From: Thermodesulfobacteriota bacterium
GTDB taxonomy: Bacteria; Desulfobacterota; Desulfobulbia; Desulfobulbales; SURF-16
DNA: 26,041 bases
Direction of reading: 5' to 3'
NCBI GenBank assembly: GCA_039715015.1
Contig: JBDLIE010000035.1
Coordinates: 1 to 26,041 of the forward strand
In this document: in pieces, positions 225 through 26,041 of the stretch
How positions within the stretch are numbered: the stretch's first letter is position 1
Layout: every line of letters begins with the position of its first letter
Made by a program: the position numbers and the translations under genes
The notes under the pieces: generated by a model
What the model saw: only the letters and a program-made list of their open reading frames with translations
Told to the model about the DNA's origin: nothing
The model's database searches: none

Positions 225-737
225 TTAGCTGCCGCAATCCTTGCTGCCGCCTTTGATTTTATAGATGGCGTGGGCCAGGCCAGGCAGGATAGTCTCCAAA
301 TTTTCCCGGGCGCCTCTTTCGCTGCCGGGCAGATTGATAATCAGGCAATTTTTGCGGATACCAGCCACCCCACGAGAAAGAATAGCATTTGGAGTTTTCT
401 GGAAGCTTGCCATGCGCATCATCTCGCTGATGCCTGGAATCTCTTTGTCAAGGAGAGGAAGGGTGGTCTCTGGAGTTTGATCGCTGGGGCTTACCCCGGT
501 GCCCCCCGTGGTCAAAATGAGGTCGAGGCCCTCTTGGTCGCACCAGGTTTTCAGTGTGCTGGAGATGGCGGTTGGGTCATCGGCGACAATGGTATATCTG
601 CTGATTGTATATGGGCCTGCAGAGCGTAATTGTTCTTGGAGTTGTGGGCCGCTGGTGTCCTGACGTTTCCCTTGAGAACCCTTGTCGCTGATGGTGAGAA
701 TTCCGCAATGGTAGATTTCTGCTGTTTCCTTGTCCAT
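225..737 (-). CDS. mog: Molybdopterin adenylyltransferase (MogA/MoaB family)
   Basis: Motifs ILTISD, DLILTTGGTG, SRGVAGIR, INLPGS; 170 aa. Confidence 0.92.
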   Translation of the reverse strand: MDKETAEIYHCGILTISDKGSQGKRQDTSGPQLQEQLRSAGPYTISRYTIVADDPTAISSTLKTWCDQEGLDLILTTGGTGVSPSDQTPETTLPLLDKEIPGISEMMRMASFQKTPNAILSRGVAGIRKNCLIINLPGSERGARENLETILPGLAHAIYKIKGGSKDCGS

Positions 738-745
738 GCCTTGGC

Positions 746-2386
746 CTAGTGCGGGGCTGCTTCCTTCTCCAGCTTTTCATAATGAGAGAAAACAGCCTTG
801 AAGGTAGCGCGGCCACCGCTCAGCTGAGCTAGGTCGCCACCGTATTCAAGAATTTCCGCCATGGGCACTTGGCTGACAATGACCTCGTTTCGTGCCTCAG
901 AGCGGATTTCCATAATCTTGCCGCGTCTTTTGCCAAGATCTTGGAGGACTTCACCGACACAGTCATCCGGCAGGGTAATAGAGAGATTCATCAGCGGTTC
1001 GAGGAGGATCTGCTCCTGATCATTCTGTTGTTTTTCCTGGTAGGGCACGGTGGGCAAGGTGAGTTCAAGTTCGATGCCGAATTTGCGGGCTATTCGTTCG
1101 CAGGCAACCTCAAGATGAAGACGTCCTTGGCCGGATAGAAGGGTTTCTCGGGTTCTGGGTTCTTGGCTCATGTGGAGGGCCGGATCTTCCGCTATGATCT
1201 TTGAGAGGGCCGTATACATGTTTTCGCTGTCAGTCTGGCTCTTGCAGGCAACGGCGTAGGTAAAATGGGAGCGAGCTACATTTGGAAGTGGCTCCAAAAT
1301 AGGGGCTTCCGAGGTGTCGGAGAGGGTGTCGCCCGGGGCGCTGGCATTGAGGTCGACCAAGACCCCGATCATGCCCGCTGAAAGAGCCTCTGTTTTTTCC
1401 AGGCTACCGCCGTATGGGATGTAAAAGGAAGCGGCTTTTTCTTCGCTGTTACGGCTTACATTGTAAAGGGTGCCGGGGGTAAGGGTTCCAGAATCAACTT
1501 TGCAGTAATAAAGGATGCCCATAGTGGGATCGTGGTCGATCTTGAAGATCTGGCTGCGTTGGGAAGAATTTCCTTGCCCGCTTTCTGGAAAGAGGCGGTG
1601 GGCGAGTTCAAGGAGGAGGCCCGCTCCGAAACCTTTTTTTGCAGCTCCAGGAAGCACCGGGGACAGGGCACCGGATGCAACAGCATTTTTTAATCCAGAC
1701 AGAAGATCTTCCTTGTCAAGTTCGCCTTCTTCGAGCAATTCCTCAATGAGCTCGTCATCTGTTTCTGCGACTTGCTCCATAAGCTTTTCCAGAGCGATAT
1801 AGGTTTCGTCCTGCATGGAGGTGGGGATTTCACCCTCGGTGAGAGAGGGCCAGTCTTCTTCGGAAAAATAGAGGGCCTTTTCGCCAAGAACATCAACAAC
1901 GCCCTTGAAATCTGCGCCGCTGCCAATGGGCAAGTATAAGATGGCGGGGTCAAGCAGGATGTTTTTACGGATTGCAGCTAGGGTACCCTTGAAATCTGCC
2001 TTGTCCTCATCCATTCGGTTAATAAAAAGAATGGAGGGCATGGTGGATTGTTGAATGAGGCGAGCCGCTTTTTCCGTCTGAAACTTGTGGGCTTCGTCTG
2101 CACATATAGTCAGGACGGCATTATCACTGACCTGGGCCAGGATATCTGCTTCGTGAAGGAAGTTGTCATCCCCCGGAGTATTGGTGATAACCGTGTTCGC
2201 CCCTTGCCACATAAAATGAAGATGGCTGGAGGTGGTGGTCATCCCGTGGTCGAGAGATTCCGGGTCTTTGTCGATAACTGGATTCTCTATACCGGCAACC
2301 CTGAGAAGGGCGCGGCTGAGCGCTGTCTTGCCGGCCTTGGAGTGGCCAAGCAGAACGATGTTTTTGGTGGTCGTTGGAGCCCCCAT
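746..2386 (-). CDS. Elongation factor G-like translational GTPase lacking domain IV
   Basis: P-loop GHSKAGKT, NTPG (normally DTPG), INRMD, G' insert (FKGVVD...ETDDELIE), domain III (EDP...LSGQGRLHLEV), domain V (ILLEP...DLGKRRGKI...VPMAE...FSHYE); only 546 aa. Confidence 0.85.
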   Translation of the reverse strand: MGAPTTTKNIVLLGHSKAGKTALSRALLRVAGIENPVIDKDPESLDHGMTTTSSHLHFMWQGANTVITNTPGDDNFLHEADILAQVSDNAVLTICADEAHKFQTEKAARLIQQSTMPSILFINRMDEDKADFKGTLAAIRKNILLDPAILYLPIGSGADFKGVVDVLGEKALYFSEEDWPSLTEGEIPTSMQDETYIALEKLMEQVAETDDELIEELLEEGELDKEDLLSGLKNAVASGALSPVLPGAAKKGFGAGLLLELAHRLFPESGQGNSSQRSQIFKIDHDPTMGILYYCKVDSGTLTPGTLYNVSRNSEEKAASFYIPYGGSLEKTEALSAGMIGVLVDLNASAPGDTLSDTSEAPILEPLPNVARSHFTYAVACKSQTDSENMYTALSKIIAEDPALHMSQEPRTRETLLSGQGRLHLEVACERIARKFGIELELTLPTVPYQEKQQNDQEQILLEPLMNLSITLPDDCVGEVLQDLGKRRGKIMEIRSEARNEVIVSQVPMAEILEYGGDLAQLSGGRATFKAVFSHYEKLEKEAAPH

Positions 2387-2682
2387 GAAATATCTCCGTG
2401 CCTAGGTGCCGATTGCTTATGGTAAATGGTAAAGCATTGGCATCATGTATGAATTCTTGTTAAAACAGAGCCTGGCCTGTAGACTCTTTTAAAAAGATGG
2501 CGATTGAAAACAGATGTTTAACCTCGCTATGGCACGTATATTAAAGTCTGGCCTGTCAGAAAGCAAGCACTATAATCGTTGCGGAGATGCGGTTTTTAAC
2601 TGCCTGTAGATATCTGCCCTATGCTTGTGTTTTCCTTAGAGATCCACAGAAAGTCCTTGTCATTTTTTAACTCTATAAATCC

Positions 2683-4275
2683 ATGAAGCAGGCATCAGAC
2701 GACACTGGAATAATAGCCCGTTCAGCGGGAACCGTCGGCTTTGCTGTTATGTGCAGCAGGGTGCTGGGGCTTGTCCGTGAACAGGTGTTTGCCATTTTTT
2801 TCGGAGCTGGCTACGCCTATGACGCCTTTGTTGTTGCCTTTCGTATCCCCAATCTCCTCCGGGATCTCTTTGGCGAAGGGGCCCTTTCTGCTGCCTTTGT
2901 GGCCGTCTTTGCCGATTATGACACGACAAGGGGGGAGAAAGAGACCTGGCAACTGGCCAATAATGTCTTGGCGTTTTTCGCTGTTTTCTTGAGCCTGCTG
3001 ACCCTGGTGGGGCTTTATTTTGCCGAGGATATTGTCCTCTTGCTGGTTAAGGGTGAATTTGAACAGGAACCAGGCAAGGTGGCCTTAACCACGATGCTCA
3101 CCATGATTATGTTCCCCTTCCTGGTGCTGATCTCCCTTTCAGCTGTGGTGATGGGTGCCTTGAATACCAAGGGTAAGTTTTTTGTGCCGGCCATGGCCTC
3201 TTCCTTTTTCAATTTAGGGTCCATCATCGGTGGTCTTGGTTTTGCCTACCTTTTCACCAGGATGGGCAAGCCGGCCATTGCCGGAATGGCAGTGGGGACC
3301 CTTATAGGCGGCGGACTGCAGCTTGGCTGCCAGCTCCCGCTTTTTCGGAAGGTTGGCTTTCGTTTTAAGCCATACCTGAACCTTAGTGACCCGGGGCTGC
3401 ATCGCATTTTGCTTCTTATGGGGCCAGCGGTGATTGGTCTCTCGGCCACCCAGCTCAATATCTTCGTTAATACAAACTTTGCCTCCTCCTGCGAACAAGG
3501 CAGTGTTTCTTGGCTCCAATATGCCTTCCGCCTCATGCAGTTGCCCATCGGCGTGTTTGGGGTGGCCCTTTCCATGGCCAGCCTTCCTTTAATTTCCCGC
3601 TATGCGGCTAGAAAGGAGTTTTCAGCGCTAAAAGAGGCCTTTGTCTCTTCTTTGACCATGGGTTTTTGTCTATCGATCCCCTCGGCCTGCGGTCTCTGGA
3701 TTCTGGCCGAACCCATTGTTCGGGTCCTCTTTGGCCATGGAAATTTTGGCGGGGTTGATATCGTTAATACCGCAGAGGCCATCCGTTTTTATTCTCTCGG
3801 TCTTTTTGCCTATGCTGCGGTGAAAATAACAGTGCCTGTTTTTTATGCTTTGGGAAATACCAGGTATCCGGTGATGGGAAGTTTTATTGGCGTGGGGGTG
3901 AACCTGCTTTTGGTTGTAAGTTTGATCGACCATTTGAGTTATAAGGCCACGGCCCTCTCTCTTTCCGGAGCAATGGCCTGTAATTTTTTCTTTCTGTTTG
4001 TTGTGCTCTATCGTAAGCTCTCCGGTTTCTCAGTGGCCTATGTATTTCGGGGACTTGTGAAAATCCTTGTGTCTTCCATTCTCATGGCCCTTTGTGTGTA
4101 TGGTCTTGCTCAGTGGACTGCCTCTTGGCTTGTTGGTTCGTTACCGGCCCAGATTTCTTCTCTTTTCTTTTGTATTGCTGGCGGCGTTGTTGTGTATGGC
4201 AGCTTATTGTACGCCTTTAAGCTGCAGGAGTTAGAGACACTTGTTGGCAAAATTGCAGTAAGGATAAAGGGCTGA
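2683..4275 (+). CDS. murJ: Lipid II flippase MurJ (MviN)
   Basis: SRVLGLVRE, AFRIPNLLRDLFGEGALSAAF, RLMQLPIGVFG; many hydrophobic segments; 530 aa. Confidence 0.96.
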   Translation: MKQASDDTGIIARSAGTVGFAVMCSRVLGLVREQVFAIFFGAGYAYDAFVVAFRIPNLLRDLFGEGALSAAFVAVFADYDTTRGEKETWQLANNVLAFFAVFLSLLTLVGLYFAEDIVLLLVKGEFEQEPGKVALTTMLTMIMFPFLVLISLSAVVMGALNTKGKFFVPAMASSFFNLGSIIGGLGFAYLFTRMGKPAIAGMAVGTLIGGGLQLGCQLPLFRKVGFRFKPYLNLSDPGLHRILLLMGPAVIGLSATQLNIFVNTNFASSCEQGSVSWLQYAFRLMQLPIGVFGVALSMASLPLISRYAARKEFSALKEAFVSSLTMGFCLSIPSACGLWILAEPIVRVLFGHGNFGGVDIVNTAEAIRFYSLGLFAYAAVKITVPVFYALGNTRYPVMGSFIGVGVNLLLVVSLIDHLSYKATALSLSGAMACNFFFLFVVLYRKLSGFSVAYVFRGLVKILVSSILMALCVYGLAQWTASWLVGSLPAQISSLFFCIAGGVVVYGSLLYAFKLQELETLVGKIAVRIKG

Positions 4276-8653: not shown

Positions 8654-9049
8654 CTAGCTGTCTTTTTCCATGCTTGCAGTTAACTCTTCTTTTTCCTCAA
8701 GCATGGCGTTGCGTCCTGCTTCAATGGCTTCGCTCAGGGCATTCTTTTTGTCATCAAGGTAATCCTTGCCGCTGGTGGCCATCTCTGTGCCCTGCTCAAT
8801 GAGATCCCTGCCCCTATTGATTAGATCTCTTCCTCGATCAGCAATGTCCTCTGCAGAGCCGCGAAGACTGTCGGGAAGGTTCAGGTTGCGTGTTTTGTCT
8901 CGTAAATCATTGCCGTAATCAGAAAGTATTTCTCTGGTTTCTACACCGGTTTTGGGGGCATAGAGCAGGGCAAGGCCTGCGCCGATGACCGTGCCGGTAA
9001 GAAAAGAGAGAAGGGTGGTTCCTGATTCGCAGCGATCATCTCTGTGCAT
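8654..9049 (-). CDS. YtxH-like protein
   Basis: FLTGTVIGAGLALLYAPKTGVETRE signature followed by a helical repeat-like region; AAGGAG RBS. Confidence 0.88.
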   Translation of the reverse strand: MHRDDRCESGTTLLSFLTGTVIGAGLALLYAPKTGVETREILSDYGNDLRDKTRNLNLPDSLRGSAEDIADRGRDLINRGRDLIEQGTEMATSGKDYLDDKKNALSEAIEAGRNAMLEEKEELTASMEKDS

Positions 9050-9143: not shown

Positions 9144-9521
9144 TTATTTTATGAAGAACTTTGTAAACGCTTTAATCCCTGCATTGATACTGGCAATCTG
9201 AATCAAGCTGGGAGAAATTTTATCTTTCAAGATATGGGTTGTTGCGAGCAGTACATGGCCGGCCTCTTGCACTTCATTAAAAAGCGTGTCGGTCTGGTCG
9301 ATCTTGTCGTTGATGGATGCAGCCATGATCTGTAGCTCTTCTGCTGTGTCCGTGGCAGATTTGATCAGTGGTTCTATTTCGGTATCAATATGTGCAATAG
9401 CTCCTTCCACTCTCTTAGCTGTTTTTCTTATTTGATGGAGGGTAGGTATAAGGCCTGCCACCAGAACAACAAAGGAAAAGGCGATAACGGCAAGGAAAAA
9501 TGTTGAGGGGGTCACGGTCAT
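9144..9521 (-). CDS. DUF948 (YtxG/YoxC-like) membrane-anchored coiled-coil protein
   Basis: N-terminal TM helix then a coiled coil; directly upstream of ytxH, the usual pairing. Confidence 0.72.
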   Translation of the reverse strand: MTVTPSTFFLAVIAFSFVVLVAGLIPTLHQIRKTAKRVEGAIAHIDTEIEPLIKSATDTAEELQIMAASINDKIDQTDTLFNEVQEAGHVLLATTHILKDKISPSLIQIASINAGIKAFTKFFIK

Positions 9522-19077: not shown

Positions 19078-19152
19078 GGCCCCTTCGTCTAGCGGTCAGG
19101 ACACCGGCCTCTCACGCCGGGAACAGGGGTTCGATTCCCCTAGGGGTCACCA
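19078..19152 (+). tRNA. tRNA-Glu (anticodon CTC)
   Basis: Acceptor stem GGCCCCT/AGGGGTC, anticodon arm CCGGC-CTCTCAC-GCCGG, T arm AGGGG-TTCGATT-CCCCT, encoded CCA end. Confidence 0.97.
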
Positions 19153-19202: not shown

Positions 19203-19403
19203 TTTGGTGGGTTTGAGGGTGATAATTTACCATAAATTCTTGGTAAATTATGGGTAATTTGTCAAAGAAGGTTTTGTCTTCATCGGGGGCGCAAATATAA
19301 AATTCCTTCCTGGAACAACCAGGAACGGAAAGCGGCTTGCCTCCGGGAAGAGAGGCCTCTTGTCACTTATGTGCTGGCCAACCTTCCACATCATTGCAGC
19401 TAT

Positions 19404-19964
19404 GCTCCAGCCGAGGATCTCAAGTATCCTTTCGGCATATCGCACTATGCCCGCGGATTTGCCTATGTCCGCAAAGGTGATGTTGCTAGATCAGAAGCTG
19501 AGCTTGCACAGCTAAGAGTCCTAGCCGACGATCCCGATGGGGCGAACGTGAAGATTTGGGGAGAGGAACAACGGTTCGGCCCTGCTGAGCATCGCTGTGG
19601 AAGTAATGTGGAAGTAATAGCGGGAGAGATCGCTGTCGCCCCAAAAGACATCGATGCGGCGTACGCTCACTTCAAGAGAGGCGTTGATCCACAGGACAAC
19701 CTGCTTTTCGATGAGCCACAGAGCTGGGACTATCCGGTTCGTCAGTCTTTGGGAGCGCTGTTGCTCGATTTCAACCGAATCGAAGAGGCTGAGGCTCTCT
19801 TCCGTAAGGATCTGCTGAAGAACGCTGATAATCCTTGATCCCTTTATGGCTTGGCCCTGTGTCTGAAGACTAAAGGGGCATCCGCCTTGGCTATCGACAC
19901 AGAGAAAAGCTTCCGCCGTGTCTGGGCCTGCGCCGACCTAAAGCAGGATCGTCCGGTATTCTAA
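19404..19964 (+). pseudogene. 3' fragment of a TPR-protein paralog
   Basis: Aligns to the C-terminal part of the gene at 22945-23493 (40/45 identical aa over LLFDEP...NP). 5' part missing, +1 frameshift near 19560, 11-bp tandem duplication at 19596-19617, Trp->TGA at 19836-19838; homology continues to RPVF-TAA (19964). Confidence 0.88.
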
Positions 19965-20130: not shown

Positions 20131-21432
20131 TCAGTTCCTGTCTCCAATTGGGGCTGCAAAAGCATCTCTAACTAAGGTTTCGACATTATCACCTGTCAAC
20201 GATTCCAAAAAGGCAACAATGTCATTCATTTCCATGTTAGTCAGCCCTAACGGAGTTATTATTTTGTCCAGCTGTGGATTGGCGAATCCCCCCTGATTAT
20301 AAAACGTGACTACGTCTAAGAGAGTGCCGAACTTGCCGTTATGCATGTATGGGCCGGTCAGCGCCACATTACGAAGGGTAGGGGTTTTATAGCTCCAGCG
20401 GTGGGCGGGGTTCAAGGTTACCTCGTAACGTCCGATATCTCGTGGCCGGGGTTCACCAACGCTATCGATTAGCTTAGTTGGCACCCGCAGCATTACTCCT
20501 GGAGCCAGCTGCACTGGATAGTCAGCCGGTTCATCCCCCATTGACGCATGCCAGCCTACTCCGGTGTTATGGAAGGAATCATCAGTGAAGAGTGCATACG
20601 TTTCATCAATCGTGTGGCAGATTGAGCAGCTCCCCTTCCCCGTAAAGAGCTTAAAACCTCTCTTTGCTGATTCGTCGAGTGCTTTTTTGTCTCCACCATA
20701 ATACCAACGATCGAAAGATGAATTTCCTGAGACCAAGGTGCGCTCATAGGCCGCAATAGCCATGCCTATTGTCTCTATCCCAAGTCCACGTCCGTCGAAA
20801 GCATCTTCAAACAGACCCTTATAGCCTGAAAGGTTGCGGATTTTTTCGATGATCCAGCCTATGCTCGGGTTTGCCATCTCGTTCGATGCCAGCATAGGTC
20901 CCCAGATCTGAAGCTCCAGACGATTCTCTCTGCCGTCATGAAAAATATTGGAGAAATAGGCGACGTTGTAGATTGTTGGTGAATTGCGTCTGACAGTGCG
21001 CCCCTCGATACCGACTGCAGTTTTAAGTTCGTTATTGGTGAAACCCTGCTCCGGCACATGGCACATGCCACAAGACATGGTGCCGTTCAGCGACAGTCTC
21101 CGGTCAAAAAACAACTTGCGCCCGAGCTGCACTTTTTTAAAGGTCATGGGATTGTCGGCTGGAACCGGGACGGGCGGCAACCCAAGGGGCGGTGACTGCA
21201 GCACCCTCAACAGGTCTGCCGGTTCACCCTTTCGCCGCAACAGGCTAATGGAACGGGTCTCATATTCAGTTGATTCGTAGCCCTCCCTCATGTCCCCTGG
21301 GCCATACTCCACTTCCGAGCCAAACACATGACAGGAAGACGAACATATAAGTCCTGCGAGGAGGGCGATTATAACGCTCCGGACGATATGACCTCGGAGT
21401 GCTGATTTACTTGCTTTTAGTAATGGGATCAT
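20131..21432 (-). CDS. mauG: MauG-family diheme cytochrome c peroxidase-like protein
   Basis: LGRKLFFDRRLS, CGMCH, RNSPT, FHDGR, CSICH, KTPTLRNVALTGPYMHNG; signal-like N-terminus; overlaps the 3' end of the SBP56 gene. Exact start uncertain. Confidence 0.85.
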   Translation of the reverse strand: MIPLLKASKSALRGHIVRSVIIALLAGLICSSSCHVFGSEVEYGPGDMREGYESTEYETRSISLLRRKGEPADLLRVLQSPPLGLPPVPVPADNPMTFKKVQLGRKLFFDRRLSLNGTMSCGMCHVPEQGFTNNELKTAVGIEGRTVRRNSPTIYNVAYFSNIFHDGRENRLELQIWGPMLASNEMANPSIGWIIEKIRNLSGYKGLFEDAFDGRGLGIETIGMAIAAYERTLVSGNSSFDRWYYGGDKKALDESAKRGFKLFTGKGSCSICHTIDETYALFTDDSFHNTGVGWHASMGDEPADYPVQLAPGVMLRVPTKLIDSVGEPRPRDIGRYEVTLNPAHRWSYKTPTLRNVALTGPYMHNGKFGTLLDVVTFYNQGGFANPQLDKIITPLGLTNMEMNDIVAFLESLTGDNVETLVRDAFAAPIGDRN

Positions 21433-22753
21433 TGTTCTTATAAAGGGAATAGGCACCAAACTTCATTAGATGCGCTCGCCCTAGCTTCTGCTTAATGAAA
21501 TCAATTTTAAAACGCTCTTTAAGCTCTTTCCCATCCCATTCGTAGCCTTTCAGAAACTGTTCATTCTCATCACCCTTCTTGTCCCAGTTGGAAAGAAGTG
21601 AGCTGGTAAAATACAAGCGTTTACCGTCCCAACTGGATGAGACCATGTTTACCTGGGAGCCGATCTTTTTTTCGTAAACTTGGACAGGGTGGAAGGGGTC
21701 TGTAACATCAAAGGCACGCACCTTCCCATCCATAAAGGTATCTATCCAGAGTAATTTGTCATCGGAAGAAATGGAAAAAGCCACCGGCAAAGGAACTTGG
21801 GCGGGGTCACCGATATCTGCAACTTCAGAGGCCTTCCACTCATCCTTATCGTTACGGTGAATAAGCCAGATTTTCGAGGTAAGAGCCGTGGTCGTAAAAC
21901 AGTAATCATGCTCAGGCTGCAAAGCCCAACGTATTTCGAGTGGTGCTCCAGGAACGTCAAAAATTTTTAAAGGCTTGCGATTGCTCATACGCCACACGAT
22001 GACCGTATTGCCGAACCTTTTCATTGCTTGTTCATCTTTGAACATCTTGCCAAAGTCCATCATATAATTGGACCAGCCAGTAAAAGACGAGGTAATCATG
22101 ACATCCAGTCTCGGCATAAAGCGCAAATCATAACTGTATCCATCTGCATACTTTCCTGTCTTTTCGGCGCCCTGGAGATTATCATCAGTCGGCATCCAAT
22201 AGGTGGTAACGTATTCTCCTTCGGCTGTGTACTCGACAAGGGCCGAGCGGCCACCATGGTCGCGGTTGTTTGAAAGGCCGGTAATGAGCATACGATCCTG
22301 CCGGGGCATGACGGTATGGGGCCCCACTACGCCACCGCTTTTTGCCACGAAATCATGAATGGTTTTGACCAGCCGCGGTTTGGCAGGGTCAGTGTGTATG
22401 TCAAAGATAAAGATCTTGCTGGTGTCAAGCGTGGCACCCCAAAGATAATGCCGATCATGACTAAAGCCTGAGTGATGTGCCTCATTACGCCCTCCAACCG
22501 ATACGGAATGTATGACTTTACCAAAGTCTGCCGATTTAGGGTTTACATCAACTGTAACCAGTTTATCCTGCTCGTCGCCGACACCTTCCATGCCGAGAGT
22601 CCAAATATAGATGAAATCCTCCTGCCCGGTGATCTTGATCATATCAGGTGGCATATTGGTCTCGTCAGCCTGTCCAGAAATAGGTAGTAGGACGAAAATC
22701 GTCATGCTAATGGCTACTAGAATTGTATTAAGTAATTTTCTTGTTGTAGTCAT
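21407..22753 (-). CDS. mtoX: Methanethiol oxidase-like protein (SBP56/SELENBP1 family), exported
   Basis: Signal peptide then DET...ITGQEDFIYIWTLG, EAHH, GPHT, TSSFTGWSNYMMDFGKM, VPGAPLEIRW, TSSLLSNWDKKG, LGRAH; strong AAGGAGG RBS; next to mauG. Confidence 0.88.
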   Translation of the reverse strand: MTTTRKLLNTILVAISMTIFVLLPISGQADETNMPPDMIKITGQEDFIYIWTLGMEGVGDEQDKLVTVDVNPKSADFGKVIHSVSVGGRNEAHHSGFSHDRHYLWGATLDTSKIFIFDIHTDPAKPRLVKTIHDFVAKSGGVVGPHTVMPRQDRMLITGLSNNRDHGGRSALVEYTAEGEYVTTYWMPTDDNLQGAEKTGKYADGYSYDLRFMPRLDVMITSSFTGWSNYMMDFGKMFKDEQAMKRFGNTVIVWRMSNRKPLKIFDVPGAPLEIRWALQPEHDYCFTTTALTSKIWLIHRNDKDEWKASEVADIGDPAQVPLPVAFSISSDDKLLWIDTFMDGKVRAFDVTDPFHPVQVYEKKIGSQVNMVSSSWDGKRLYFTSSLLSNWDKKGDENEQFLKGYEWDGKELKERFKIDFIKQKLGRAHLMKFGAYSLYKNNDPITKSK

Positions 22754-22944
22754 TGGCCTACCTCCTTTTTGCAGATATAATCAGACAGATTAAGATTTAT
22801 ATGTTTTTGGGGCATATCTCGATCTCAATAGATCCACATAACAAGCTGAAGGATTACTCCTAAAATGAAATAAAAGAGCCAGATTACCACCTATTATTAG
22901 GCTACCTTGGTATTTCATTGAAATCCGTGGCTTTCCGATAAGAA

Positions 22945-24646
22945 TCAGAACACCGGACGAGACATCTCCAAATCGGCACGAGTCCAGGCGCGGCGAAAGC
23001 GTTTCTCCGTGTCGGTGGCCAAAACAGTTGCCCCTCTGATCTTCAGACACTTTGCCAAGCCATAGAGGGACCATGGATTCTCAGCATTTTTCAGCAGGTC
23101 CTTGCGAAAAACGGCCTCAGCCTCTTCGATTCGGTTGAGATCGAGCAACAGCGCTCCCAAAGACTGACGAACTGGATAGTACCAGCTTGGTGGCTCATCG
23201 AAGAGAAGCCCCTCCTGAAGAACTACACCTTGCTTCAAGTGCGCGATCGCTGCCTCGGCATCTCCTTTAGCGGTTGCGATTTCCGCCGCCAGGACTTCTA
23301 CAGCGATGCTCAGCAATGCCGAACCGCTATTCAGTTCCCAAATCTTGACAGCCTTTACAGCGGGATCTGCCGCCAAATCTTTCAGTTTTCCAAGCTCCAT
23401 TTCTGCTTTAACAATATTTCCCTTGCGGACATAGGCAAAGCCTCTGGCATAGTGCCACATCCCCAATGGGTACTTGAGATCCGCGGCTGGGGCAGGTTCG
23501 GCAAGGACTTTGTCCCATTTTCCAAAACGCACCAAAGCGTAGTAAGGTGCCAGATAGTATAGCTGCAGGGCGCCCATTCCAGGTTGGCGCATCGTATCCG
23601 GATCAATCCCCGCAGCCAAGGACCTAGCCGCAGCAAAGCTTTCCTGAGAGCGCCCTTCCATCATGTAGCTAGCCAGCAGAAAGTGAAAGTTGTGAGGCAT
23701 ATAACCCACTTGGTAGAGACCGCTGCTGTTGAAGGAGGCACGCAAATTTTTGTCCACTCCTATCGCCTCTTCATTAACGGTGCTGCAATCATGGTAGAGT
23801 CCAGCTGCGTAATAGCCATGGCCTGCCATGTGGACCAGATGCCCAAGAGGCCGGAGCAAGCCTTCGGATAATATCAGCGCTTTTAATCGTGGCTTCCGGC
23901 TTGGGAGAATTTTCCAGGAGGTGGATATAAAGGTGGTGTCCGTGCGGGTGATTAGGGTGATTTGTCACAACTTTTTCCAGAATTGATTCGATCTCAGGCT
24001 CCCAGGGTTGCTCCTGCCCCTTGTCGGTCCAGTAATTCCAGGGATGGAGATCCATAAGCGATTCCGCAAAGATAACAGCTACGTTTGGATCATTGGGGTA
24101 GCGCTGGTAAACTTTTCTCATTTTATCAGCGAAGGCCTTATCGAGTGAGGAACGGTCGGGCATCGGGGAAGGTGAATAGCGGACTGCCAGAGCTTCAATC
24201 AGCGCCCGTTCTTTCTTCGTTACTTTTCCGGCAAGTGCTAACGATTTTTGAACCAAAGCATAGGCCCGTGGCACATCGGCGTCGTTCATTGTGGCATTGA
24301 TGTTCGGCCCAAGGACGAAAGCAACTCCCCAGTAAGCCATGGCGCATTCGGGATCATGTCTGGCGGCCTCCATAAAGGAGATTTCCGCATCAGCATGATC
24401 AAATCCGTAGGTAAGAACCAGAGCCTGGTTGAAAAAAGCTTGTGCTTTTTTACTGTCGGTTGTGATGGGATAGTCCAAGGAAAAGAGCCCTTCGAGTAGG
24501 GGCACTTCATTTGAGGTTAGGGAAGATGGTCCATGTAGCCCTTCTATCGACCAGGCCGTTTGTGAGGAGTAGATAGTAAAAAAAACTACATTAAAAAGGG
24601 CGCAAACAGTCAGCGCAACGGGGTTTCTTAATAACGATTTTTTCAT
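22945..24646 (-). pseudogene. Exported His-rich TPR-repeat protein, split by a single +1 frameshift
   Basis: The two ORFs join as ...IRRLAPAS|GHLVHMAGH... if one T of TCT-T-GGG (23845-23846) is removed, giving 566 aa from ATG 24646. Motifs DPECAMAYWGVA, HPWNYW, HLYIHLLE, HNFHF, DEPPSWYYPVRQSLG. Confidence 0.8.
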
Positions 24647-25133
24647 TTGGACACCTTCTACTGTGATATGTAAATAACTGATCCCTATGCCAAATTTATA
24701 CTCGGATAACATTCATCCATGATGGATAGCCGGATACAGAATAACAACACATGATCCAAATTCCAGCTGAACTTGTCCGCCGGAATATATGCCCCTCTCC
24801 TTCGCGATTATTGCAAAAAATACGCCAGTTGCGTGGTTATACTGTTCTAACCAGCAAGCAGTGGTGCTCCATGTATCCGTGGCCATAGTAAAGCAATGCG
24901 AAAAGGGAGAGAGGTATTCGGAATTATGGAATTACAGCGAAAATCGCATATCAAAAATACGCTTTTCCGGATTTTTCACAAATGCGTTTTGCAATTAGTT
25001 TTCATGGCAAACGAAGTAGACAGGCTACCTGCATAACCGGATATCACTCAAAATAGGGAGCTAGCCGGAAAATCGATAACATTCCGCCATTCATTTTTCG
25101 ACCACCTAAACCACCAACCGAACCACCAAAAAT

Positions 25134-26041
25134 GTGGTTCTCAACCCAATACGGGAGGTTTTCGGATGGACGAGAAAAATAAACACACTTCAACCCCCAA
25201 AACCGGCACATTATTCCAGTGCGGAAAACGCATGGAATAATGTGGCGTGTGGTCGAAATTGTTTAGTTGCGAACGGGAGTGAGCAGGTGGACAATTTCGA
25301 TGTGCGTAAGCACAAACACGCCACAAGCAATCTACAATCAAAAAACCAAAGGGATCTAAAAAAAAATTTACACGAAGCCTATGGTTATATCCGAGAAGTC
25401 AGAGAGCATTTAAAATACTGGCAGCAACCTACTGAGGAGACAACGCGTCAATATTCATTGGCTTTGAAGAGATTGATCAAAAGCGGTCTCTGGCCAGAGC
25501 AATACGCACAAACAAAACGCGGCTTCTATTTTTACAGGGCCGCAGTCGTCAACATGTCCCTGCATTAACTATAGCAACGAATTGTACAGATCAACAAGTT
25601 ACAAAGGAAAAAGGATCTCAGTTGGATCGATATTGCCTTTGACTTAAAAGACTTTCTTAGAAAAGTAAGAATCTATCCTCCTGACCAGAAGCAAAGCCAT
25701 CTTACAAAAAACATTAGCAGTCTGTGGACGTCCGATGGAAAAAATCCTCGTTCAACAGCCAAACGTAAAGGATTGGGTACCTTGCCTAAAAACTGGAGGC
25801 GAATTTTCTGGGATAACATTCCAGAAAATTCGCCTCACCGGTTGTCAATTGCCCTTCTTTCGATAACTGGTTGTCGTCCCAGTGAACTGAAAAATTGGGT
25901 CATAATAGAACTCACAGACAAAACCAAACTCAAGATTTCCATCTTTGGCTCCAAAACTCGAAAAGGCAAATATGGACAACAAATTCGGGTTTAGACCATT
26001 GATCCACAAACCGAAGAAGCTCGTTATATCCTTCGATGATT
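25134..26041 (+). pseudogene. Tyrosine recombinase/integrase pseudogene, truncated by the window end
   Basis: ORFs 25134-25568 and 25773-25994 are in the same frame, separated by stops TAA 25566 and TAG 25572; further stops TAG 25992 and TGA 26037. Catalytic box I motif ITGCRPSEL, then a candidate catalytic Lys (GSKT). True start uncertain. Confidence 0.75.

Follow-up and report, generated by a model that had tools for sequence, protein, structure and literature searches.

A conserved elongation factor G paralog without domain IV in three genera of uncultured Desulfurivibrionaceae

Domain IV of elongation factor G (EF-G) reaches the 30S A site and is needed for translocation. What, then, might be the task of a gene that encodes an EF-G-like protein without this domain? 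The question is raised by the 26,041-nucleotide contig JBDLIE010000035.1 of a Thermodesulfobacteriota bacterium (assembly GCA_039715015.1), which was analysed over its whole length and is called the window here. The gene is located at positions 746..2386 on the minus strand, as are all parts of it described below, and was defined by its ATG-initiated open reading frame (ORF; stop codon at 746-748), by Pfam matches and by its orthologs. It codes for a protein of 546 amino acids (aa), and a Shine-Dalgarno sequence (GGAG, 2394..2397) can be read seven nucleotides (nt) 5′ of the ATG. An earlier reading of this DNA, termed the original prediction in the following, described the product as an EF-G paralog from which domain IV had been cleanly removed.

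Domain architecture and comparison with known families

The protein has the domain order G-G′-II-III-V. In the Pfam search the G domain with its G′ insert (residues 1-268, 1583..2386) is matched by GTP_EFTU at residues 7-267 (E 3e-25), domain III (residues 363-452, 1031..1300) by EFG_III at residues 373-442 (E 3e-20) and domain V (residues 460-546, 749..1009) by EFG_C at residues 461-542 (E 6e-21), with the protein ending four residues further. Domain II (residues 269-362, 1301..1582) is matched weakly by EF-G_D2 (residues 279-357, 23 bits, cut-off 27). EFG_IV (PF03764) gave no match in this protein at E ≤ 1. The junction in the translation reads ...LPTVPYQEK-QQNDQEQ-ILLEPLMN..., and according to the alignments the linker QQNDQEQ (residues 453-459, 1010..1030) replaces domain IV. 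A phmmer comparison with the PDB sequences gave the same picture: residues 8-452 correspond to residues 13-486 of Thermus thermophilus EF-G and residues 458-542 to residues 598-682, and residues 487-597, which are domain IV, are unmatched, with the seven-residue linker in their place. The predicted removal of domain IV from a protein of 546 aa was confirmed by these searches, as was the joining of domain III to domain V by a short linker, which had been placed at about 1010-1033. A split gene was ruled out, for the 3.0-Mb genome has no stand-alone domain IV; its two PF03764 matches are both part of canonical EF-G genes.

Alignment with full-length relatives revealed three more clean in-frame deletions. 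Switch I is shortened by 9 aa in the short proteins (by 16 aa in one genus, g9), the first hairpin of domain II, about 20 aa, is deleted (gap in alignment columns 286-305), and the C-terminal helix, which in EF-G packs against domain IV, is shortened by about 9 aa. The boundaries of all four deletions are identical across 13 independently assembled genomes. The deletion of domain IV described originally is therefore present, but it does not stand alone and is the largest of four trims.

Against TIGR00484, the model for EF-G proper, the protein scores 274.8 bits (cut-off 659.4). The five-domain architecture of this family is not found, and its motifs AHIDAGKT and DTPGH are replaced by GHSKAGKT and NTPGD. 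The two canonical EF-Gs of the genome carry AHIDxGKT and DTPGH; LepA, BipA and RF3 are encoded as well (the RF3-like gene is located on contig C2). BipA and LepA resemble the short protein in the order G-II-III-V, in the direct joining of III to V and in a domain II that starts without the EF-G hairpin. They differ in having the catalytic His (LepA of this genome reads DTPGH) and C-terminal domains of their own, and LepA is without the G′ insert. The scores are 95.6 bits for TIGR01394 (TypA/BipA; cut-off 757.3, profile positions 196-473 of 594) and 75 bits for TIGR01393 (LepA; cut-off 533.9, profile positions 161-475 of 595), in agreement with the original statement that the C-terminal domains of both families are absent. 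RF3 is of similar size; it likewise contains a G′ insert and is without domain IV (PMC5668647). It differs in being without domain V and in having kept GTPase activity. The score for NF001964 (RF3) is 86.6 (cut-off 473) and that for RF3_C 16.9 (cut-off 40.1), and EFG_C is present. For Tet(M)/Tet(O) (NF012153) the score is 173.2 against a cut-off of 775, and domain IV, whose loops dislodge tetracycline in these proteins (PMC4342817), is missing.

The same domain set, G-G′-II-III-V, is found in engineered domain 4-less EF-Gs of Escherichia coli and T. thermophilus. These mutants were made from housekeeping EF-G and keep the catalytic His, the full switch I and the full domain II, whereas the short protein is natural, conserved in three genera and also without the catalytic His and three further elements. 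Martemyanov and Gudkov in 1999 and Savelsbergh and colleagues in 2000 are said to have found domain IV strictly required for translocation. In the literature searched, with subscription journals outside its range, no natural EF-G-family protein with the architecture G-G′-II-III-V was found, only RF3 and the engineered mutants; passages of two surveys of translational GTPases (PMC3150367 and PMC4342817, supplements aside) mention no such form. The short proteins are named 'GTP-binding protein' or 'elongation factor G' in existing databases (NCBI, JGI), and the latter name is misleading.

Orthology, distribution and selection

From which EF-G does the short gene derive? Among the NCBIfam models the protein scores highest against NF009381, which represents an 'elongation factor G' subfamily. 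This score, 409.7 bits, is below the cut-off of 583 because profile positions of about 482-600 are unmatched. Full-length relatives of roughly 687 aa score 897 against this model and carry the marks of EFG II, namely the P-loop Gly, a Leu after GKT, a G2 motif of the RxxT/SI type and a Lys-rich loop I. Short and full-length proteins are 37-44% identical, and in the tree the short proteins group with the full-length paralogs of the family against canonical EF-G.

Both forms are also found in the same chromosomal slot. In the window, mogA (MoCF_biosynth; 225..737, minus strand), identified with Pfam and as a conserved neighbour, lies 8 nt 3′ of the short gene; the likewise conserved neighbour murJ (2683..4275, plus strand; Pfam and synteny) is divergently transcribed. 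Both genes flank 11 of the 13 short-form loci, the other two being cut by contig ends, and at every short-form locus that retains the respective flank mogA is directly 3′ and murJ divergently upstream. The full-length paralog has mogA directly 3′ at 16 of 17 family loci, in four of four further family genomes and at L056, a locus outside the family; murJ is divergently upstream at 4 of the 17 loci and at L056. A second match at E ≤ 1e-60 was found in none of the short-form genomes, and the window's genome has no full-length gene of the NF009381 type. From the shared slot, the lack of a second match in the short-form genomes and the lack of a full-length gene in the window's genome it follows that the short gene and the full-length EFG II-type paralog are positional orthologs, and that the former is not an extra copy. 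The original prediction of an EF-G paralog can be made more precise: the gene descends from an EFG II-type paralog already without the catalytic His, and not from the housekeeping EF-G.

In addition to the slot 5′ of mogA and the best family match, short and full-length forms share the P-loop Gly and Leu, a His-less switch II of the DTPGD type, the invariant acidic region of G′ and the core of domain V. Domain IV with its KHKKQ loop, which is the tightest-constrained part of the full-length paralog, is found in the full-length form alone, as are the intact switch I, the domain II hairpin, the C-terminal helix, Thr291 and Lys352.

Two observations were made on individual EF-G genes in these genomes. 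The frame of one full-length EFG II-type paralog (L030, G033:C88:1-3563) stops after 642 aa, within domain V, while tblastn similarity runs on to query residue 544; the metagenome-assembled genome (MAG) is 88% complete, and a frameshift, a premature stop codon or a sequencing error may account for the early end. One of the two canonical EF-Gs of the window's genome (contig C31 of G000; L002:823-2919, minus strand) has a KDG insertion in switch I (..HEVRGKDGVGATMD..), which is described as a mark of spdEFG1 (Margus et al., 2011, PMC3150367). The genome seems to hold a pair of the spdEFG1/spdEFG2 type together with the short EFG II derivative.

The short form occurs in 13 of the 40 species genomes of the family Desulfurivibrionaceae (GTDB), and these are all members of three genera: 8 of 8 in genus g1, which includes the window's genome (one member of g1 has the gene divided between two contigs), 3 of 3 in genus g7 (one truncated by a contig end) and 2 of 2 in genus g9. 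For the order as a whole, 301 genomes from 76 genera were covered, and 13 genomes and 3 genera have the short form; the 16 other families, with 261 genomes, yielded none. Altogether, the 13 independently assembled species genomes yielded 11 complete orthologs and two that end at contig ends. An assembly artefact was ruled out by the identical junction in separate assemblies. A search for orthologs with the same deletion had been proposed originally, and their presence in 13 species genomes means that the deletion is not strain-specific.

In a collection of 5.8 billion proteins, the 120 matches listed included 24 proteins of 537-552 aa with 52-100% identity and one fragment of 359 aa. PF03764 is absent from all 25 listed matches shorter than 600 aa and present in all of the other 95, which are 682-763 aa long and 35-41% identical. 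The short proteins are assigned to MAGs of uncultured Desulfurivibrionaceae/Desulfobulbaceae. In a library of 1.84 billion representatives, the best 150 of 24,092 matches include a single representative of this architecture; it was matched with 873.9 bits in a single stretch, and the next match had 381.9 bits and 694 aa. Four proteins among these best 150 are shorter than 600 aa, one being the short family. As independent domain IV-less EF-Gs, P0240 and P0242 were rejected, being fragments that stop within domain IV, and so was P0209, in which domain II is missing instead. P0209 is an EF-G relative of 577 aa with the order GTP_EFTU-EFG_III-EFG_IV-EFG_C, no domain II match and a domain III that begins 9 residues past the G domain; it could be a natural domain II-less EF-G or a gene-call or assembly error. 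The rows listed for the ESM Atlas are all full-length clusters (676-697 aa, with EFG_IV), and none of its clusters of at least 50 members has the short architecture, which is no proof of absence.

A maximum likelihood (ML) tree was calculated from 11 short proteins, 17 full-length proteins and one canonical EF-G. L022 and L025 (cut by contig ends), L030 (frame ends early), L002 and L057, a canonical EF-G adjoining EF-Tu, were left out of trees and selection analyses. The short proteins form one clade with a support of 100 in the Shimodaira-Hasegawa-like approximate likelihood ratio test (SH-aLRT). Its stem has a length of 1.24 changes per site, and inner branches among the full-length proteins have at most 0.31. 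A tree of canonical EF-G from 27 genomes of the family, used as a species proxy, places the three genera on one side of a branch with an SH-aLRT of 100. The simplest history suggested by these trees is one deletion in the common ancestor of the three genera, followed by vertical descent. The deep nodes, which decide between a short clade nested in the full-length paralogs and one that is their sister, have supports of only 10-84.

The ratio of nonsynonymous to synonymous substitution rates (dN/dS, Nei-Gojobori) is 0.058-0.281 over 33 non-saturated pairs of short genes; pairs of full-length genes in the family have 0.041-0.137. The short gene is clearly under purifying selection, and the frames are intact in all 11 orthologs free of contig-end cuts at a synonymous divergence of more than one per site. 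These results bear on the explanation that the gene is functionless, either as a decaying remnant of a dispensable paralog or as an assembly or annotation artefact. A relic might show the constraint that we find here, which is weaker than in the full-length paralog, and the further drift of the G3 and G4 motifs in the window's genus; moreover, disruption of EF-G2 in Mycobacterium smegmatis is reported to have no effect on growth (bioRxiv 10.64898/2026.05.25.727771). The low dN/dS, the intact frames, the good Shine-Dalgarno sequence and four deletions with identical boundaries in 13 genomes argue strongly against this explanation, which can hardly be correct. The original view of an evolved architecture instead of fresh damage is borne out by the single clade, the 13 genomes and the dN/dS of 0.06-0.28.

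The constraint is distributed unevenly over the domains. In the G core dN/dS is 0.03-0.10 in the short clade and 0.055-0.127 in the full-length proteins, and in domain V it is 0.04-0.19 (0.04-0.07 in six of seven pairs) and 0.03-0.30, respectively. The corresponding values are 0.10-0.42 and 0.04-0.19 for domain II and 0.125-0.40 and 0.02-0.06 for domain III. Domain IV of the full-length proteins has 0.03-0.05, and domains III and IV are their tightest-constrained parts. Identity between short and full-length proteins is highest in domain V (51%) and G′ (50%) and lowest in domain II (27%). The 78 columns that are invariant in all 28 proteins are located in G′ (20), the G core (19), domain V (19), domain II (10) and domain III (10). 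Once domain IV was lost, tight constraint persisted in the G core, G′ and domain V and was relaxed in domains II and III.

Motifs, predicted structure and possible function

The catalytic His of EF-G is missing from the short proteins. In the G3/switch II motif of the window protein (NTPGD, residues 69-73, 2168..2182) the His of DTPGH is replaced by Asp; in the alignment, H87 of T. thermophilus EF-G corresponds to D73. Among the 24 short proteins, switch II reads NTPGD in 14, DTPGD in six and DTPGN in four, which gives Asp at the catalytic position in 20 and Asn in four. The full-length relatives have DTPGD in 88 of 95 proteins and DTPGH in none. NTPGD and NRMD, the G4 motif (residues 123-126, 2009..2020; canonically NKMD), are confined to the window's genus (14 of 14), in which the Mg-site Asp of G3 is changed to Asn.

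Other parts of the G domain are retained. The G1, G4 and G5 motifs for nucleotide binding persist, and G14, H15, G19, K20, N123, M125, D126 and G247 are invariant in all 24 short proteins. The P-loop GHSKAGKT (residues 14-21, 2324..2347) has the EFG II-type Gly where EFG I has Ala, and G14 and L23, which correspond to positions 19 and 28 of T. thermophilus EF-G, are invariant in the 24 proteins. The published EFG II signatures in this region are Gly at 16 and Leu at 25, where EFG I has Ala and Thr, respectively (PMC3150367, Table 1). The Thr of G2 is kept as well, T50 in HGMTTT aligning with T64 of T. thermophilus EF-G; the motif is relaxed, and in genus g9 it is degenerate. A relaxation of G2 from RGITI to RxxT/SI is described for the delta sub-subgroup of EFG II (PMC3150367). 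In the acidic helix region of G′ (MEQVAETDDELIEELLEEG, residues 203-221, 1724..1780), 13 positions are invariant across 14 short and five full-length proteins (M203, E204, A207, E208, T209, D210, D211, L213, E215, L218, E219, E220 and G221). The negatively charged G′ region has been linked to contact with L7/L12 and to L7/L12-induced hydrolysis (Margus et al., 2011, PMC3150367).

Several residues were lost in addition to the catalytic His. An Ile and an Asp in the P-loop of EF-G1 are reported to contact the sarcin-ricin loop (bioRxiv 10.64898/2026.05.25.727771); they are Ser and Lys in the window protein. The domain II signatures of EFG II are Thr291, Gly333 and Lys/Arg352 (PMC3150367). Gly333 is retained as G326, whereas Thr291 and Lys352, which are invariant as Thr and Lys in the full-length relatives, are Ile and Asp in the window protein (H/I/L/V and D/G/N across the short clade). 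The Lys-rich loop I (positions 471/472), for which the full-length relatives carry GKHKKQSGG, is absent together with domain IV.

The retained motifs might belong to an active ribosome-dependent GTPase of the RF3, BipA or LepA kind, which would bind, alter the conformation of the ribosome (rotation, 50S assembly, rescue), hydrolyse GTP in a non-canonical way and leave. The order G-II-III-V is common to BipA and LepA, and RF3 works without domain IV (PMC5668647). The invariance of G1, G4, G5 and the acidic G′ region, the latter being tied to L7/L12-induced hydrolysis (PMC3150367), would also fit, as would the G core being the tightest-constrained part. We nevertheless consider such an enzyme unlikely: all 24 short proteins have Asp or Asn in place of the catalytic His, the P-loop residues that contact the sarcin-ricin loop are exchanged, half of switch I is gone, the C-terminal domains of BipA and LepA are missing and all family scores are far under the cut-offs. 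A change of the catalytic His to Tyr alone (H88Y) nearly abolishes the ribosome-dependent GTPase of M. smegmatis EF-G1 (bioRxiv 10.64898/2026.05.25.727771). By analogy with EF-G, activation of the canonical type appears unlikely because of the Asp or Asn at the His position, the Ser and Lys in the P-loop and the shortened switch I.

EF-G paralogs with a replaced catalytic His (Tyr in M. smegmatis) that are reported to be without ribosome-dependent GTPase are the EF-G2 proteins of M. smegmatis (9K0Z/9K10) and Bacteroides thetaiotaomicron (8DMF). The predicted structure of the short protein resembles both (TMq 0.87 for 9k0z_7 and 0.84 for 8dmf), which differ from it in that domain IV is kept and the A site occupied. 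According to Han and colleagues in 2023, the B. thetaiotaomicron protein reportedly sustains translocation. M. smegmatis EF-G2, with Tyr at the catalytic position and no ribosome-dependent GTPase, is said to trap post-translocated ribosomes in stress (bioRxiv 10.64898/2026.05.25.727771).

An AlphaFold2 model was calculated from an alignment of 71 sequences. Its mean pLDDT is 88.6 and its pTM 0.85, with a pLDDT of 74 for the block that holds the linker (residues 451-460). Foldseek matches in the PDB are all EF-G. The best superpositions were obtained with ribosome-bound EF-G (TMq 0.90-0.94; 7n2v 0.94, 4v9o 0.93, 7k51 0.92); T. thermophilus EFG-2 (1wdt) and M. smegmatis EF-G2 on the 70S ribosome (9k0z) gave 0.87 and free EF-G crystal forms 0.72-0.75. 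Since the model superposes best on ribosome-bound EF-G, the seven-residue linker is predicted to allow G, II, III and V to be arranged as they are on the ribosome.

Could the protein have left the ribosome altogether? It might be a nucleotide-binding switch, perhaps tied to mogA and thereby to molybdenum cofactor synthesis, or to nearby cell-envelope genes. The very long stem of 1.24 changes per site would be in keeping with this, as would the identity of only 27% in domain II with two signature residues lost, and mogA follows 8 nt 3′ in every locus that retains this flank. This adjacency is older than the deletion, as the 16 of 17 full-length family loci show, and is therefore uninformative about the short form. 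Furthermore, the regions that are invariant in short and full-length proteins are ribosome contacts of EF-G (G′, V, P-loop), and the predicted arrangement matches that of ribosome-bound EF-G. A function off the ribosome seems quite improbable to us.

In EF-G, the P-loop, G4, G5, the acidic G′ helix region and domain V face the 50S subunit, where the sarcin-ricin loop, the L7/L12 stalk and L11 with H43/44 are located, and domains II and III face the 30S subunit. In a mycobacterial EF-G1 complex, domain V contacts H43 and bL11 (bioRxiv 10.64898/2026.05.25.727771). The conserved parts of the short protein are thus 50S-facing and the relaxed parts 30S-facing, from which we infer that it would still dock at the factor-binding site in a nucleotide-bound form. 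Taken as a whole, we consider it reasonably probable that the protein is a conserved EFG II derivative that serves as a non-translocating occupant of the ribosomal factor site and is probably impaired as a GTPase. The evolutionary and architectural part of this reading is close to certain; towards its functional part, which is read from sequence, we lean with some reserve.

The course of events is reconstructed as follows. Before the three uncultured Desulfurivibrionaceae genera diverged, the paralog of their common ancestor was trimmed by all of domain IV, half of switch I, the C-terminal helix and the first hairpin of domain II; substitutions came in a burst alongside this loss, and purifying selection followed. 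Without domain IV the protein would not reach into the 30S A site, so neither tRNA translocation nor RRF-dependent splitting is to be expected, and the two canonical EF-Gs of the genome would perform translocation and recycling. A role in recycling or splitting, one of those offered in the original prediction, is unlikely for the same reasons. With Asp at the catalytic position, GTP would be hydrolysed poorly or not at all. The protein might then act by occupancy, holding or shielding ribosomes or 50S subunits and excluding EF-Tu, EF-G and other factors. It could be a brake during stress or slow growth, akin to the report on mycobacterial EF-G2. As the A site would not be entered, binding to ribosomes with a filled A site or to free 50S subunits may be possible.

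Several points weigh against occupancy of the factor site. It is conservation patterns alone that suggest ribosome binding, and the assignment of 50S contacts to G′ and V and of 30S contacts to II and III was established for EF-G and is carried over here by analogy. Domains II and III, the 30S-docking parts of every translational GTPase, are changed most, including the loss of Thr291 and Lys352, which could equally mean that docking to the ribosome is altered. The Asn in G3 and the Arg in G4 of the window's genus may weaken nucleotide binding rather than merely prevent hydrolysis. Some GTPases hydrolyse GTP without the canonical catalytic residue, and 'GTPase-dead' is not proven. The overall constraint is weaker, dN/dS being about 1.5-2 times that of the full-length paralog, and the short protein evolves about 2.8 times faster than canonical EF-G of the same species (tree path lengths). 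The AlphaFold arrangement may also mirror ribosome-bound EF-G structures in the training data.

A more specific form of the occupancy reading is rather doubtful and is put forward tentatively. As a natural 'EF-G delta-4', the protein would plug the 50S factor site in a GTP-locked state, held via G, G′ and V with weak or no engagement of the 30S subunit, and it would represent a new, sixth architecture in the EF-G/EF2 branch.

Surroundings in the window and meaning of the short form

The neighbourhood of the gene is ordinary core chromosome. In addition to mogA and murJ, Pfam identified genes for an RsmE-type methyltransferase, kdtA, lpxK and lpxC, and further genes in the window are those for a sigma-54 activator, comEC, a sigma-70 factor and malQ. 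The window showed no mobile elements. A small YtxH-like gene (8654-9049, minus strand) and an adjacent small DUF948 gene (9144-9521, minus strand), both identified with Pfam, are syntenic with the lpx genes across related loci. A tRNA gene (19078-19149, plus strand; Rfam RF00005, 62.3 bits) is located just past malQ. Pfam also identified a gene for SBP56, a homolog of the 56-kDa selenium-binding protein (21407-22753, minus strand), and a gene of the di-haem cytochrome c peroxidase/MauG type (20131-21459, minus strand). These two overlap by 53 nt on the same strand and may work as a redox pair on sulfur or selenium. No Pfam match at E ≤ 1e-5 was obtained for five ORFs of 94-307 aa (19371-19838, 22790-23074, 23230-23562, 23789-24712 and 25134-25568). 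The last 3 kb of the window have a lower G+C content (0.42-0.46).

Deletion of domain IV is the classic laboratory means to uncouple binding and GTP hydrolysis of EF-G from tRNA movement. Nature made the same cut, and the product was kept under purifying selection in three genera. This is of interest for the field of translation factors, with an occurrence limited to a few uncultured genera and a function predicted from sequence. As in a natural experiment, the pattern of constraint that followed the loss indicates which EF-G domains depend on domain IV. If the short protein binds the ribosome, it shows what the G-G′-II-III-V core is capable of alone, and it would be a new type among the EF-G paralogs that act by occupancy, beside the EF-G2 proteins of mycobacteria and Bacteroides. 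If it is indeed a plug of the 50S factor site, it could sit on ribosomes with an A-site tRNA or on free 50S subunits, which is impossible for a domain IV-bearing EF-G2 or a hibernation factor, and slow-growing sulfur bacteria of sediments might pause elongating ribosomes reversibly without emptying them.

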